Positions 6,001-15,000 of a DNA stretch of 21,656 nt are shown piece by piece. Position numbers: made by a program. Every line of letters begins with the position of its first letter. Position 1 is the first letter of the stretch. The DNA is from Gemmatimonadota bacterium (GTDB lineage Bacteria; Gemmatimonadota; Gemmatimonadetes; Palauibacterales; Palauibacteraceae): contig JBDHAC010000060.1 of the NCBI GenBank assembly GCA_039588275.1, forward strand, positions 1 to 21,656, given 5' to 3'.

Positions 6001-9000
6001 CGAGGTACGCGATCCCAGCCGCCGAAATCAGGGTCGCGAAGCCGAGCCCCTCCCGCTCGCTCAGCCGGCCTGACGGGAGAGGGCGGTTACGCGTGCGGCG
6101 CATGGCGGCGTCGGGCCGTCGCTCCAGGTACTGGTTGAGGGCGTTGGTCCCCCCGGCCGTGAGCGCCGTCCCGATCAGCGCATGCAGGAGCAGCGCGAGC
6201 CGGGGCGCGGCCGGCGAGGCGACGTGGAACCCGACGCCGGTGGTGAGCAGGACCAACCCGGTGATCCGGGGCTTGGTGAGCTCCAGGAAAGCGCCCGCAC
6301 GCCGGCCGAGGCGGTGGATGAGGCCCGAGAGGGCCATGTCCCCCGGCTCCCGCGGGCCGACGGTCGCCACGCCAGGTCTGGCGCCCGACGCCTGGGCCGC
6401 CCCGGCCCTAGATGCCCCGGGCGAGCTCCACCAACTCATCGGTGCTCCCTGACGTGGCGAAGGCCACGCGTCCGTCGGGGGCGAGCAGATACACGAGACG
6501 GGTGTGGATCACCTCTCCGGTCCGCAGGTCGCGCGCGCGGGACACCTTCCAAGCGTCGAGCGTCCGCTCGACGGTCTCGACGGCACCGGAGAGAACGAGC
6601 GCTCCCTCGTCCAGCTCCCAATGTTCGGCCAGGTATCGGAGACGCGATGGAGTGTCCCGCCACGGATCGAGCGTCACGACGAGCATGACCGACTCGATGC
6701 CGTCCGCCGCCAGTCGCCGCTTCGCCTCGCGCACGTCCCGCACCACGGTGGGGCACACGGTCTCGCAGTGGCCGAAACCGAACGTCAACAGCACGTTGCG
6801 CCCCCGAAAGCGCTCGATGGACACCACTTCCCCGCTCTGGTCGATGAGCTCCAGCGGGGGCGCGGGCATGTCGAGCCGCGCGGGCTGGTCATCGAGGCGC
6901 GCCGCGACGTGCGGCAACCCGGGGGCGATCCACGCGGAAGCCGCGGCGACCCGCACGCTCACGGCCCCGATGCCCGCGAAGACAAGTAGAGCGCCCGCCG
7001 CCAGGGTCATCCGCCCGCGCCCTCCGCGGGCTAGCGCGTGGAGCCCGGAGCGCAGATCGTCCCACCAGCCGAAGGCGAGCACGCCGAGCAACGAGAGGGG
7101 TGGTCCCGTCAACGCCAGCCAGCCCCCGCCATCCGGCAGGCCGTTGGCGCCGGATCGGAAACAGACCTCGCGCGCCCGCACCAGCCACTGCGGCGCCGCC
7201 TCGCCCGTCGGCCACAGCGCCAGGGCGAACCACACGGCCGAGATGGCCAGGATCAGCCCCAGCGCCGCCACGGACCATCGCTCGGCCCGTGACGGACCCA
7301 TCATGCCCACGCTGCCCGACCGTGCAACCATCGGTTACCGCCCTCGATACCGCCTCGGTGGCCGGCTCAGCCCACTTCCCACAGGAACGAGAGCAGCTTC
7401 CAGTTCGTGAAGTAGTAGGTCGCGAAAGCGGCCAGGAAGACGAACACCAGGATGATCGTTCCCGGCGCCCAACCGAGCCCGCCACCGATTTCGGCCCCCG
7501 GTTCCTGCTCCGGCGGCGGCGGGGGCGGGTTCACGATTCCGTTTGGCACTCCATGCATCACCATCAGACCGCCGCTCCTTCCTCCATGGAACTCGGGCCG
7601 ATCTCTTCCATCGGCTTCCCGAAGAACACGGACCATACAGTGCACAGGATGAAGATCGCGCCGCCCAGCGCGGCCAGCAGGCCGCCGATCGCGGTCACCG
7701 CGATCAACAGGTCGACCGCGGGGCTGAACTGGAGATCGAAGGGCGCGTTGGCGAACGTGATATCCCAGTGACGGCGCGGGACGCCGAACGTTCCCGCGAA
7801 CGTCATCGCGACCGAGAAGATCAGCATGCCGCCCGCGAACAGGTACGGCTGGATCTTGGCCAGGCTCCAGAAGGCGATCTTCTTCCGGAAGATCAACGGG
7901 ACCACGTAGTAGGTGACCCCCATGAACGCGAGCGCGGTCCCACCCACGACGGTCGCGTGGAAGTGGCCCGGGATCCGCAGCGTGTTGTGCGCGATGATGT
8001 TGATCTGCTCGGTCCCGAACGTCACTCCGGTGATCCCGCCGACGAAGCCGAAGATGATGACCGAGAAGATGAGCGCGCTGAATCCGGGGTCGCCCCACGG
8101 GGCCCGGCGCAGCCACTCGAACATCCCCTTCGTGAAGCCTCGGATCCGTTGCCCGACCTCGATCCCTGCCGGCACGGTGAAGCCGTGGATCATGCTGGCC
8201 AGCACGGCCATGTACATGAAGTAGCTCGTGTTCACGACCTTCCAGGCCGGGCCGAAGCCCGGGTCCACCAGCAGGTGGTGGGCGGAGGCCATCGAGATGA
8301 ACAGGATGTAGAGGACGAATGCTGCGCGGCTGATCTTCTCGTTGATCACGGTGGCCCCGACCGTGAGCGCCCCGAGCAGGTACCAGCAGGCAACCATCGC
8401 GGCGACGTTGATCTGCTGCGACGAGTGACCCAGCCCCCACCACACCATCCGGTAGACCTGGGCATCCACGTTCCCGATACCGATCGACCACAGCCAGGTC
8501 GGGATGTAGATCGCCGCGCCGTGAGCCAGCGTGATCACCGCGATGATCGCGGCCGTCAGGCCGCCGAACGTCACCAGGGGGACGGATCCCTCGTACGTCT
8601 TCTCGCGCTTCGCGACGACGAGGGAGGCGAAGAAGATGCAGGTGACGAGCAGGGCCCCGACCGCGAACAGGATGACACCGAGATAGAACCAGTGGTCGGC
8701 CTGGAGGGGCACGTAGGAGGTGAACAGCACGTCCGCGCGCCCCGCGAACATCATCCACTCCACCATCAGCGTCCCGATCACCATCAGACCGAACGAGGCC
8801 CAGGCGAGCTTCGGTACGGGTACGCGGCAGTTGAGCAGGACGGGCCCCGCGAAGTAGAGCACCGCCATCTCGAAGAAGATGATGAAGAAGATGAGCATGT
8901 TCATCCCGTGGATGGTCAGCCACCGATAGAACGGGATCACATCCAGCAGGTGAATCGCTTGCCAGCGGGTGAGCAGCACGAGGATGGCGGCGAGCCCGCC

Positions 9001-12000: not shown

Positions 12001-15000
12001 TTCCGTGAAGAGATCTCTGCCCTGGCACCTATCGCGGCCGAGGCCGAGATCGAGATGGATGTCGAGTGCGAGCCAGCGGAGGTGGAGGTGGCCGGATGAG
12101 GCGCTGGGCCAGGTACTCCGTGGCCGGCACCCTGGCCATCGCCGCCACGCTCGGGATCCGCGGGCTGTCTCACGTCCCATTCGTCGGCGAGCGCGATCCG
12201 CGGGCGGTGGTCCGGCTCTCGTGGAGGGTGCTCGGGCAGCAGATCCAGGAGTGCCGACGCCTCAGCCCCGAAGAGCTTCAACAGCTTCCCGCTCACATGC
12301 GGCGTGAAGAGGCGTGCGAGGGTCGCGTGGCACCTTACCAACTCGACGTTCTCGTGGACGGCGTCCTCGCCGACAGCGGGCTGATTCGTGCCTCCGGCGC
12401 GCGCCAGGATCGGCCGATCTACGTCTTCCGGGAGATCTCCGTCGACCCGGGTGAGCACCGGCTCGAGATCTCGTTCGTCAGCGAGCGCCCGGCCGGACGG
12501 CAAGCCGAAGAGCTCGGCGTGCGGGACGCGGCCTCTGCGGACCCCACTCGCGCGCGTCCTGACTCCGGCGCCTCACAGGCGCCTTCGAGCCGCGCCCCCG
12601 CCACGGTACGAACGGCGGACGCGGCGCCAGCGGAGCTACGCCTCGATACCCGCCTCGAGCTGGGGCCCCGAGAGATCGTGCTCGTCATCTACGACCCGGA
12701 GAAGCGGGAGCTGGTGCTGCAGGAGCGCACGCCCGGCCGAGCCGGTTCGGCGCAAGATCGTTAGGCGTCAGCCAACCCACGCACGAGCACCCGGGATGTA
12801 ACGACCGGATCTCGAGCGCGCATCTCACCGTCGCGTGACCTGCATCCCCGGCAGGTTCTCCATGCGCCAGATCTCGCCGCGGTCCTCGCCCGACCGGAAC
12901 GCGATCCGGTTGCCGTCGGGGTGCAGACCAAACCCGCCCCGGTGGAGCGGCAGCTCGCCGAGGACCGTAACTTCGCCGCCGGTTGCCGGGACCATGAGGA
13001 GCTGGCACGGCCGCGGGTCGGGTGTCTCACCCCGGGTCCTTGGCTTCGCCTCGTCAAACAGGAGGAAGTGACCGTCCGGGCTCCATTGAACCCCCCCGCA
13101 ATCGCCCATGAGAGGGTGGGCCTCACTCCACCCGCGGGACCAGACTTCCAGGGGGGGACCGCCGGCCGTGGGGACCACCAGCAGATGTTTCACCCGGGCG
13201 TTGAAGTCCCGGTCGAAGAACGCGAATTGGCTTCCGTCGGGAGAGAGCCACCCGTTTGTCAGCATCTGAGGATACCGGGGTCGGTCGCTCCACACGTGGA
13301 GCTCGATCTCCTCGCCGGTGGCTCTCTCTCGGGCGACGAGCGTGTGCGTCGAGTCTTCACCGGACCAGCGCACGACGAAGGCCCTCTTTCGGTCCGGTGA
13401 GTCTTCGAGGAAATAGACACTCGAATCGCCGGGAGCGTCAGGTTCGCGGAGCGGTTCCACGGTTCCCCGACGCAGGTCGAGTCGGTGCACACCGCTCTCG
13501 CCGGTCTCCAAATCACGCCCGTTGAGAAAGATGCTCGCTCCGTCGGGAGTCCAGCGAATCCAGTTGTTGGCCGAGAAGGCTTGCAGCGGCATCTCACGGC
13601 CTTCCTCCCCGCTCACCGACCGGATCACGAGGTAGTCCCTGTCGGCCGCCACATCATGGCTCACGTAGGCCAGCTGAGCGCCGTCCGGTGACCAGTCAAA
13701 GGCGCGGACCTGTCGAGAGGTCGGCTCCTCGATCGGCATCGGAGGTGAGATGATGCGACCCACGGACAGATCCACGCCGGCCACGAAGATCTGCGGCCGC
13801 TGTGTGCGCACCCCGTAATACAACGCGTCGCGCGACAGGCCGATCGGTTCCATCCGCCACACGTCCCCCCGCACCAGTTCGGGTTCGCCCGCCGGTCGGC
13901 CGATTGCCATCGGGAGGCGCCACACCCCTTCGGTGAGCTCCCGGTCGCTGTAGAAGAGCAGGCTGCCGTCGGGCAGCCAGCCGATGACCCGTTCGATCGA
14001 TGGACCGCCGACCACCTCGACGGGGGCACCCCCGTCGAGGTCGATCACGGAGATGTCTCCGTTGGACGGGCTCGAGGGCGACATGTCGTCCTCGAACGCC
14101 ACCCAGCGGCCGTCGGGTGAAACGGCCGCAAGCGCGGGTCCTGCGTTGGGCGGGAAGACATGTACGGTGCGGGCGGCGCCGTCTTCCACGGAGACGAGGG
14201 TCAGATATCCTCGCGACTCCCGCCATTCCCGCCCCCCCGTCTCATGGGGGTACAGGGTAGCGAGCAAGTGACGACCGTCGGGCGCCCAGCCGTGAAGGTC
14301 CGGCCACCAGATCACCGATCTTTCGTCGTGGGTTGTCCTCTCACCCGTCCACAAGGTTCGCACATTCGCATGATCCATATCGGTGACGCGGAGCTCGTAG
14401 TGGCCGGGCTCCGTGTACCATGCGTACGCGATGTGTCGCCCATCGGGCGAGAATCTCGCCATCTCGCTGTAGGCGTAGGAACTGACCCACTCGTCGTCCT
14501 TCTTCCGGGTGACGCGTCGCATCGCTCCCGTCAGCAGGTCGAGGATCGCAAGGTCGCCCGTACTCCAGTCCGTTTGGGTCACATAGCGGCCGTCCGGCGA
14601 GGAGCTCGTCCCCCAGAAGTCCGGACTGGGCCCCTCGTACATGCGTCGAAGTACGATGTTCGTGTCGCCCACGGCGGACGGGGCGGTTGAGCTCGGCTCC
14701 CAACTGCCCGCGGCCGACGCTCGAGCGAGTGCCGCCTGGCTGGAGTCCTGGAGACAGCCCGCGAGCGCGGTGGCAAACACGAGAGTAGCGATCGTGGCCG
14801 TTGTTCTGATCATTCTCTTCCTCGCGGTGCGATGGCGGCCGCGCGTTCGGGCGCTTGGCCCGATCGAGCGGCACCTGGGGCTGCCTCCGAAGGCTCGCCA
14901 GGGATCATTGGAAGGACCGCGCCGCATTACGTGAAGTCGTGTAACTAATTGTAATATAGAGCGGTGTGTATTTTGATCGCAGGTGATTTATAGGCGAATC

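Follow-up and report, generated by a model that had tools for sequence, protein, structure and literature searches.

Results

The window analysed here is a whole stretch of 21,656 nt (positions 1 to 21,656 of contig JBDHAC010000060.1, assembly GCA_039588275.1) from a Gemmatimonadota bacterium (Palauibacterales; Palauibacteraceae). An earlier note had described in it a NO reductase-like operon and a putative electron module; the named genes were indeed found at their places, and the Pfam domains, His pairs and COX1 motifs were found again. On the minus strand, in the order of transcription, lie g03077, an Rrf2-family regulator (9969..10418), g03076, a 57-aa single-TM peptide (9747..9920), g03075, eNOR subunit II with a CuA site (9102..9734), g03074, eNOR subunit I (7564..9105), g03073, a 64-aa single-TM peptide (7367..7561), g03072, a SCO1/SenC copper chaperone for CuA loading (6408..7331; Pfam SCO1-SenC at 159-289), and, outside the interval 6408..12764, the haem O synthase gene ctaB/cyoE, the last of the operon (5453..6439). 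We add to the note that the regulator is on the same strand as the eNOR operon and is its first gene. The plus strand carries g03078 (10528..12099), a 523-aa cytochrome b/Fe-S/MvhD fusion, and g03079 (12096..12764), a 222-aa membrane-anchored beta-sandwich protein whose start overlaps the stop of g03078. Both subunits, the fusion and the g03079-type protein (the tail) are present in 20/20 clusters fetched from the same phylum, in line with the synteny described in the note.

As claimed before, g03074 lacks the cross-linked Tyr: its motif is GHSSQQIN, with SSQQ where the other COX1 genes of the genome have PEVY and PLVY. Q231 replaces this Tyr (H227+4; Q245 in Rhodothermus marinus), and the K-channel residues Y242/S304/H307 correspond to R. 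marinus Y256/S318/H321 at a constant offset of 14; the metal site is H227/H276/H277 and the haem ligands are H66/H381/H383. In g03075, E20 matches the channel-entry Glu of R. marinus subunit II (E21) and, like the CuA ligands H123, C158, E160, C162, H166 and M169, is invariant in 99/99 rows. The nearest solved relatives of g03074 are B-family oxidases (E 4.5e-50 to 3.5e-41), with the A-family near 1e-4. By these diagnostic residues and the B-family similarity, we assign the minus-strand operon to eNOR, a B-family-derived NO reductase. Thus, the note's B-family origin and eNOR option stand, while its "sNOR kind" was dropped because Gln, not Asn, is at the Tyr position; this residue rules out sNOR/bNOR (Asn) and nNOR (Glu) alike. 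The R. marinus eNOR, as described in the available part of Murali et al. 2024 (PMC11214002), shares the Gln for Tyr, the K-channel Tyr/Ser/His, the subunit II Glu, CuA and B-family descent, whereas the operon here has ctaB without ctaA and the C-terminal helix of subunit I is split off. At least two Gemmatimonadota are already among the eNOR hosts in the first 30 of the 76 rows listed there.

This detached helix is g03073: it starts directly after the subunit I stop, and where relatives have a longer subunit I ORF, the 3' end of that ORF is its match. g03076, with no Pfam match, is probably a subunit IIa-like helix; its counterpart is found upstream of subunit II in 20/20 own-phylum clusters and 55/80 proteobacterial loci. 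CtaB/CyoE passes its NCBIfam cut-off (TIGR01473, 278.7 bits against 210.3), yet ctaB, present in 53/80 proteobacterial loci, occurs in only 3/20 own-phylum clusters, 18/20 of which carry SCO1. In this genome ctaA is at another place, and NirS is also encoded elsewhere.

Control of the operon was ascribed earlier to an NsrR-like protein. We could not sustain this, since g03077 scores 42.5 bits with the NsrR HMM (cut-off 182); IscR is higher (77.4 bits) but also far below its own cut-off (207.6), and the one cut-off that g03077 reaches is that of the Rrf2 superfamily. Three Cys and one His (C91, C98, C104, H107) are conserved. A candidate operator, an inverted repeat in the divergent promoter region (10453..10468), matches 9/10 arm bases of the consensus ATCAT-N6-ATGAT, a motif that the 26 Rrf2/fusion intergenic regions under comparison have in common (22/26 above 24 bits). 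This site has the best motif score of the genome (28.3 against 21.2), although it belonged to the training set itself. Rrf2 genes accompany 14/20 own-phylum clusters against 1/80 proteobacterial loci.

In g03078, a dihaem cytochrome b of the bc type (helices A-F, with His pairs at 88/102 and 189/203) is followed by two [4Fe-4S] motifs with four Cys each (C307-317, C343-353) and an MvhD/FlpD domain; the Pfam matches are Cytochrome_B 34-204, Fer4_7 307-353 and FlpD 403-499, the last being above cut-off and the only FlpD match in the genome. The MvhD/FlpD residues C391, C412, C437 and C442, which we take to be [2Fe-2S] ligands as in MvhD, are conserved at 98, 98, 99 and 86%. Over residues 299-503 the protein resembles the HdrA2 C-terminus (571-775), so that the Fer4-Fer4-MvhD block of the HdrA-MvhD wire is shared, whereas g03078 is without the FAD domain, hydrogenase or HdrBC. 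The predicted structure of a fused relative (pLDDT 95, pTM 0.92) aligned with cytochrome b/b6 in a fold search (Z 22, rmsd 2.9 over 257 residues). Fold, four haem His and Qo-loop acid are those of bc1/b6f cytochrome b, from which the module differs in its altered cd1 helix, in Fe-S domains that are predicted to form an insertion on the N side, in the periplasmic beta-sandwich and in a cluster without a Rieske or c1 gene.

These features bear on the donor. An inward, bifurcating scheme would have a Qo-like site oxidise quinol, with one electron reaching eNOR and the second taking the path bL, bH, Fe-S centres to ferredoxin/NAD+; the menaquinol option of the earlier note is covered by it. In its favour are the conserved W142-D143, the bL-propionate Arg and the Qo-loop acid (Asp253, in the motif LDVFY), which is 94-98% conserved in the family; the Pro of the canonical PEWY/PDWY loop is mostly lost. 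On the other hand, the cd1 position, where the canonical Qo site has a small residue, is a bulky L/V/I in 88% of the family. A search with the genome's own Rieske protein and a control-checked motif found no Rieske in 152 fusion-bearing loci or 24 20-kb clusters, a single query that a very divergent Rieske may escape, and no other high-potential centre was found at the Qo face. Moreover, Alpha- and Betaproteobacteria that use ubiquinone commonly carry the module, and in them quinol to NAD+ against the membrane potential would be steeply uphill by standard potentials; it also occurs beyond autotrophic iron oxidisers. Bifurcation is improbable in our estimate. Because no Rieske partner was found and the cd1 helix is altered, menaquinol is a doubtful donor, and the cytoplasmic donor, the other branch proposed earlier, is the better one.

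By model, g03079 has a membrane helix where cytochrome b has its helix G, and a periplasmic beta-sandwich. The tails of 87/150 distant relatives are homologous to g03079; by sequence, g03078 and g03079 are the halves of one protein, often fused in relatives. This supports g03079 as a part of the module, since many relatives have it as the C-terminus of a single polypeptide. In the fused model the helix preceding the tail falls on the C-terminal stretch of cytochrome b, which would place the Fe-S/MvhD part in the cytoplasm and the tail in the periplasm. C53 and C74 of the tail are 98% conserved, a Met 82% and a His 33%; given this His, a redox metal site in the tail is not evident. In 5/106 long relatives a c-type haem domain lies behind the tail, and a tie of these relatives to eNOR loci was looked for and not found.

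The co-occurrence of module and eNOR was examined in 803 genomes, namely 251 from the own phylum, 351 from a betaproteobacterial order and 201 from an alphaproteobacterial family. The cytochrome b family is present in 109/110 eNOR genomes and eNOR in 109/111 family genomes, the two without eNOR holding a truncated relic and a copy at a contig edge; 691/803 genomes have neither gene. In the own phylum both are found in 58 genomes, the fusion only in 1 (the truncated relic), eNOR only in 1 (a divergent type) and neither in 191. The family accompanies eNOR in 43/43 genomes of the betaproteobacterial order, and in the alphaproteobacterial family the same 8 genomes have both. Among metagenomic eNOR loci picked by motif and flanked by 6 kb or more on either side, 23/28 have the module; the 5 loci without it within 9 kb show that eNOR can do without an adjoining copy.

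The link also persists through rearranged gene order. Here the module is divergent from eNOR, but in Proteobacteria it is within the eNOR operon (small-II-I-ctaB-sco-fusion-tail-hemerythrin); in proteobacterial loci with enough upstream DNA, eNOR is linked in 56/58 by the strict motif and in the remaining 2 by tblastn, and one plasmid carries the complete cassette. Together with the co-occurrence across phyla, this supports the earlier proposal of a dedicated partner module. The cytochrome b module is a general bacterial eNOR partner, beyond Ferrigenium. It might nonetheless be co-inherited and co-regulated without exchanging electrons with eNOR, for repair of NO damage, redox sensing or venting of surplus reductant during nitrosative stress. 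The common Rrf2 control and the hemerythrin and CRP/FNR-like neighbours would suit such a role, and joint occurrence by itself is no proof of electron transfer, but a general stress function should accompany other NO reductases too, while 691/803 genomes have neither gene, and the module lacks eNOR in 2/111 genomes only; we hold this very improbable.

Discussion

Part of this picture is already in print, namely the eNOR class, the cytochrome b-FeS-MvhD architecture and one eNOR-linked case. Kao & Hunte 2014 (PMC4122944) described a "PDWF-FeS" clade of cytochrome b with 4Fe-4S and MvhD in M. magneticum AMB-1 as well as in Turneriella parva, in clusters without Rieske, with a ferredoxin/flavin-reductase sister form in Alicycliphilus. 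The 4Fe-4S and MvhD fusion, the xDW[FY] motif and the lack of a Rieske are shared by our family, compared by description, whereas the motif in g03078 is LDVFY. They count the clade as retaining the Qo motif, which favours bifurcation, and the available part of that paper gives no function, eNOR link or tail domain for it. The Becker 2026 preprint (10.64898/2026.01.22.701106) reports cytochrome b-FeS and cytochrome b-FeS-FAD-NADH genes ("bc1 chain C-like") in the eNOR operon of Ferrigenium straubiae, with both forms in the denitrifying proteome; here there is the Fer4-MvhD form only. Its authors call the genes "rather unusual", a possible Ferrigenium marker, and propose inward flow to NAD+ by a quinol:NAD+ oxidoreductase supercomplex, also in favour of bifurcation. 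The breadth of the module argues against taking these genes to mark iron oxidisers of the Ferrigenium type.

The heads of the module suggest the opposite direction. In three betaproteobacterial clusters the sole form, next to the tail gene, is a cytochrome b-[2Fe-2S]-FAD-NAD-binding one; the head would be exchangeable between ferredoxin/MvhD and NAD(P)H reductase, at times with both adjacent. FNR-type heads ordinarily oxidise NAD(P)H, so flow would point outward. We propose, with a probability of about 45%, that g03078 and g03079 carry electrons outward, as a wire for the turnover of eNOR. They would form a single membrane protein, a complex III cytochrome b derivative without Rieske, taking electrons from a low-potential cytoplasmic ferredoxin here and from NAD(P)H in the forms with an FNR-type reductase head. 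Electrons would pass through the MvhD [2Fe-2S] and the two [4Fe-4S] clusters to haem bH, haem bL and the periplasmic face, from which the tail or a small carrier may hand them to CuA. Subunit II would supply subunit I, which would reduce 2 NO to N2O with protons taken through the K-type channel, and the NO may come from the host's own NirS. The module would keep eNOR reduced so that NO is cleared without competing with oxidases for cytochrome c, and the Rrf2 protein, presumably an Fe-S one, would co-regulate both arms through one operator. Of the earlier electron-module claim, the partnership with eNOR is supported, and electron transfer is our inference. That bacterial eNOR in general has its own Rieske-less complex III derivative, with a swappable cytoplasmic head feeding CuA from the cytoplasm, is a more tentative extension, with the odds somewhat against it.

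The c-type haem domains behind the tail suit delivery to CuA, but the relatives that bear them could not be tied to eNOR loci, which counts against the wire, as do the metagenomic eNOR loci without an adjoining module and the poorly conserved tail His. So do the host's Rieske/cytochrome b and ACIII/Qrc-like complexes, which could feed CuA through cytochrome c, and the conserved Qo-loop Asp and kept Qo half, more than a plain wire needs. As isolated, the R. marinus eNOR showed no more than subunits I and II, and it was active when given TMPD/ascorbate, again against the wire, and the available part of that report names no cytochrome b partner or natural donor (PMC11214002). The proteobacterial module gene comes after ctaB and sco, among maturation genes, which counts against a turnover role.

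The same outward wire could bring low-potential electrons to the periplasm for building or reactivating eNOR, a reading that the earlier note did not weigh and that we consider less likely than turnover. NosR serves NosZ and CcoG serves cbb3 oxidase in an analogous way. The targets would be Cu(II) or Fe(III), the SCO/CuA cysteines through the tail Cys pair, or support of haem A synthesis. The module sits with ctaB, sco and a hemerythrin-like gene (73/80 proteobacterial loci), and eNOR clusters also contain ctaA, a degenerate COX1 "scaffold" and a P-type ATPase-like ORF; the conserved tail Cys and Met and the host's other routes to cytochrome c fit as well. CcoG, with two [4Fe-4S] clusters and a periplasmic Ig-like domain, reduces Cu(II) (PMC7558416), and the module resembles CcoG/FixG, by analogy only, in its cytoplasmic [4Fe-4S] pair, membrane part, periplasmic beta-sandwich and adjoining haem-copper enzyme. 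The module is, however, haem-based, and neither g03078 nor g03079 has a CcoG/FixG or NosR family match (Pfam, NCBIfam). A chaperone would hardly need so elaborate a set as three Fe-S clusters, two haems and a preserved Qo half, the c-haem domains of the 5 relatives fit CuA delivery, and ctaA is near 0/20 own-phylum clusters.

In conclusion, the module probably powers or builds eNOR, a widespread, recently characterised N2O source whose natural donor and maturation route we did not find named in the available parts of the eNOR literature, and a near-obligate partner is a deletable target for both questions. Energy conservation by eNOR hinges on the module: the proton channel suggests that there is some, and an outward wire would cancel the gain, conserving little energy because the outward electron cancels the inward charge. 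If the outward wire is true, cytoplasmic feeding of CuA would join cytochrome c and quinol as a third way to supply a haem-copper enzyme, and eNOR would be, its proton channel notwithstanding, a fast and almost non-conserving NO sink in microoxic denitrifiers.

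The oxidase operon encodes an eNOR

Gene positions in the window were as described in the earlier note, and so were the Pfam domains of g03078 (Cytochrome_B 34-204, Fer4_7 307-353, FlpD 403-499), the 523-aa fusion of cytochrome b, two [4Fe-4S] motifs and an MvhD/FlpD domain on the plus strand. Pfam also returned COX1, COX2, SCO1, and Rrf2 across the locus, and no Pfam family for g03079, the 222-aa tail protein with a membrane helix and a beta-sandwich. The divergent oxidase operon starts with the Rrf2 gene (g03077, minus strand) and ends with the haem O synthase gene (5453-6439); the named close homologues are from Gemmatimonadota. 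The remaining COX1 genes of the genome retain PEVY and PLVY, as previously stated.

According to Murali et al. 2024 (PMC11214002, Dataset S1), eNOR is diagnosed by Q245, Y256, S318, and H321 of subunit I and E21 of subunit II, with Asn in sNOR and bNOR and Glu in nNOR; the Gln rule is given likewise in PMC8756737. Subunit I of the window (g03074) carries Q231, Y242, S304, and H307, the same residues each shifted 14 residues earlier, and E20 of subunit II (g03075) matches E21. The closest solved structures to subunit I are B-family oxidases. The enzyme had been assigned to an "eNOR/sNOR kind"; the eNOR part of this assignment stands, as Gln and channel residues match, and the sNOR part does not, as Asn is expected there and Gln is present. 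Judged by these residues, the g03074-g03075 enzyme is an eNOR.

The host genome (G000, 86% complete) encodes NirS and CtaA; a search with one model did not find NosZ. Its NirS (G000:C15:20210-22444, L274) has two N-terminal cytochrome c domains and resembles, by domain make-up, the C1-C2-NirS of Chloroflexi described in PMC8756737. At G000:C16:59763-61951 (L005) lies a NorC/NorB-like pair, consisting of a dihaem cytochrome c and a protein that matches COX1 weakly, in which the active-site helix is non-canonical. This pair is possibly the cNOR-related putative N2O reductase that Dataset S6 of Murali et al. 2024 (PMC11214002) places in many Gemmatimonadota. The window also holds, at 20068-21656 (plus strand), a B-family (ba3-type) oxidase operon broken by the contig end (IIa-like peptide, CuA subunit II, subunit I with GHPLVY); its remainder is at the end of G000 contig C49, where the overlapping stretch shows an apparent frame break, and such an operon adjoins eNOR in one further cluster of the phylum (L255).

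g03078 and g03079 are two halves of one protein

Among the best 150 cluster representatives of relatives, 106 were longer than 620 residues, and in 87 of these best 150 g03079 matched the C-terminal part (E <= 0.001). By this sequence comparison, g03078 and g03079 are one protein. The split form is the commoner one in the fetched loci (117 split, 23 fused, 6 with no tail seen), as in 80 proteobacterial loci (60, 17, and 3, respectively). The high complex score reported earlier for the pair is what would be expected from two halves of a split gene.

The single-sequence fold of g03079 was unusable (pLDDT 40), and a fused relative was modelled with a 124-row alignment at pLDDT 95. This model aligns on the cytochrome b of complex III (Z 22), several of the alignments extending up to the helix directly preceding the tail. 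We read the model as having the Fe-S block inserted on the cytoplasmic side, after helix F, with the g03079 helix replacing helix G and a beta-sandwich that would be periplasmic. The tail Cys pair, 98% conserved, fits a periplasmic beta-sandwich, and so does a C-terminal c-type haem domain behind it in a clade of five relatives (P0232, P0263, P0264, P0265, P0267) where the Cys pair is absent. A fold search with the tail returned generic beta-sandwich matches only (Z 5.9-7.8), and the Atlas unnamed clusters only. A His/Met metal site was rejected as a family feature of the tail, the His being 33% conserved in the locus set. The predicted complex of g03078, g03079, and subunit II scored 0.02 against a mark of 0.32, which speaks neither for nor against contact.

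The module accompanies eNOR beyond its own phylum

Whole genomes were searched in both directions, for eNOR and for the fusion or its cytochrome b family; every sample contains a centre genome that was picked because it carries both, and related genomes do not count as independent cases. Within the phylum (251 genomes), 58 carry both, 191 neither, one the fusion only, and one eNOR only. The fusion-only case is a truncated relic (L246, G126:C1:2067964-2069400) in which the fusion is reduced to its C-terminal part, accompanied by the tail gene and an Rrf2-like fragment, in a genome with no eNOR match; the eNOR-only case is a divergent GHGTQQIN-type eNOR. Neither gene occurs in any of 15 other members of the host's own family, suggesting that the cassette is acquired or lost as a unit. 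Among 351 genomes of the order to which a betaproteobacterial centre genome belongs, all 43 eNOR genomes have the cytochrome b family, the Fe-S part being matched in 39, and one genome has the family with no eNOR match. Among 201 genomes of the family to which an alphaproteobacterial centre genome belongs, eNOR and module occur in the same 8. A metagenome motif scan gave at least 120 loci, of which 80 were fetched and 78 were real; of the 28 that were flanked by 6 kb or more in either direction, 23 had the module. Among the five lacking it are Thermus-like and haloarchaea-like types, a classification based on motif and GC only. The association proposed in the earlier note is real and broader than it had appeared, extending beyond the phylum. 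Distances of fusion and subunit II correlate (rho is 0.86 over all 99 rows and 0.48-0.83 inside groups), which, having no unlinked control gene, we do not count as co-evolution.

In Proteobacteria, the gene sits within the eNOR operon, behind ctaB and sco, and a Defluviimonas plasmid (NZ_CP156080.1) carries the complete cassette. In 73 of 80 alpha/gammaproteobacterial loci, the gene immediately behind the tail gene encodes a hemerythrin domain (e.g., L071:11116-11520). A soluble cytochrome c is not a conserved member of the clusters: a short ORF with CxxCH occurred in 7 of 45 loci, and several of these were spurious. After the module, many non-Gemmatimonadota eNOR clusters have a second, degenerate COX1-like gene with a GHxLQF-type helix and a weak Pfam score (L105:2639-4048, L123:16247-17677, L142, L143, L116), probably the "eNOR scaffold" of a 2026 preprint (bioRxiv 10.64898/2026.01.22.701106).

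The Rrf2 regulator and its candidate operator

NsrR-like control had been proposed, and the Rrf2 protein stays below the cut-offs of both the NsrR and the IscR model. It shares a C-x6-C-x5-C-x2-H pattern with its relatives and is largely limited to its own phylum (14 of 20 clusters versus 1 of 80 proteobacterial loci). A conserved inverted repeat in the intergenic region, ATCAT-N6-ATGAT (10453-10468), is a candidate operator. No equally strong second site was seen in the genome, including near nirS, so that NO sensing by this Rrf2 protein is only a possibility.

The module as a probable outward electron wire

Over 136 rows, the four haem His, the eight [4Fe-4S] Cys, and the four MvhD Cys are 86-100% conserved. 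The Fe-S block of g03078 is matched by the C-terminus of HdrA2, whose flavin domain is absent in g03078. The family retains the Qo-loop Asp, and the cd1 position, which we take to be important for the Qo site, is L/V/I in 88% of members versus Gly/Ala in bc1/b6f. No Rieske homologue was found in the fetched loci by phmmer and by a motif checked on a true Rieske protein. Inward, quinol-driven flow would be left without a Rieske-like partner and would presumably be uphill with ubiquinone; we regard it as improbable.

Betaproteobacteria-like clusters have an additional, sister form in which cytochrome b is joined to [2Fe-2S], FAD, and NAD-binding domains. In about 41 of 44 positive genomes there is a match limited to the cytochrome b part, confirmed as this form only in the loci read. 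In three of four clusters with no full Fe-S match, the FAD/NAD form is the only one beside the tail gene (seen by tblastn in two clusters and by eye in one), which suggests that cytochrome b and tail are the constant part and the cytoplasmic redox head the variable one. Such a swappable head is the main argument for outward electron flow, and we estimate at about three in four the probability that the module is an outward electron wire serving eNOR.

That the wire would supply eNOR turnover is a tentative reading, to which we give somewhat less than an even chance. Counting against it, the neighbours of the gene are assembly genes, a Rieske/cytochrome b complex and an ACIII/Qrc-like complex are also encoded by the host, and the purified R. 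marinus eNOR showed two subunits (2021 eNOR preprint). The wire might instead serve eNOR maturation, for which CcoG, an Fe-S reductase with a role in maturing a haem-copper enzyme (PMC7558416), would be a precedent by analogy; we consider maturation less likely than turnover and more likely than inward flow. Next to the eNOR genes, at 117-4999 (minus strand), lies an operon of 2-oxoacid:ferredoxin oxidoreductase alpha and beta, a 398-aa protein with no family match, and an RnfB-like ferredoxin. It is not conserved beside eNOR in 20 relatives, and KorAB with the RnfB-like gene, rejected as ferredoxin source (0 of 20 related clusters), is probably a chance neighbour.

The architecture was given the name "PDWF-FeS" by Kao & Hunte 2014 (PMC4122944), who remarked on the lack of a Rieske gene; a table in PMC8756737 contains one protein with the same three domains; and Becker et al. 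2026 (bioRxiv 10.64898/2026.01.22.701106) reported that the eNOR operon of Ferrigenium has the two cytochrome b genes, termed rather unusual, with both proteins in the proteome and a quinol:NAD+ supercomplex proposed. Subscription papers aside, and supplements, which may mention the module, the literature searched contained neither a functional test of the module nor a survey of its link with eNOR.

In conclusion, eNOR is a known enzyme with a near-obligate, putative electron-transfer partner, of which two publications have already shown glimpses of the architecture.
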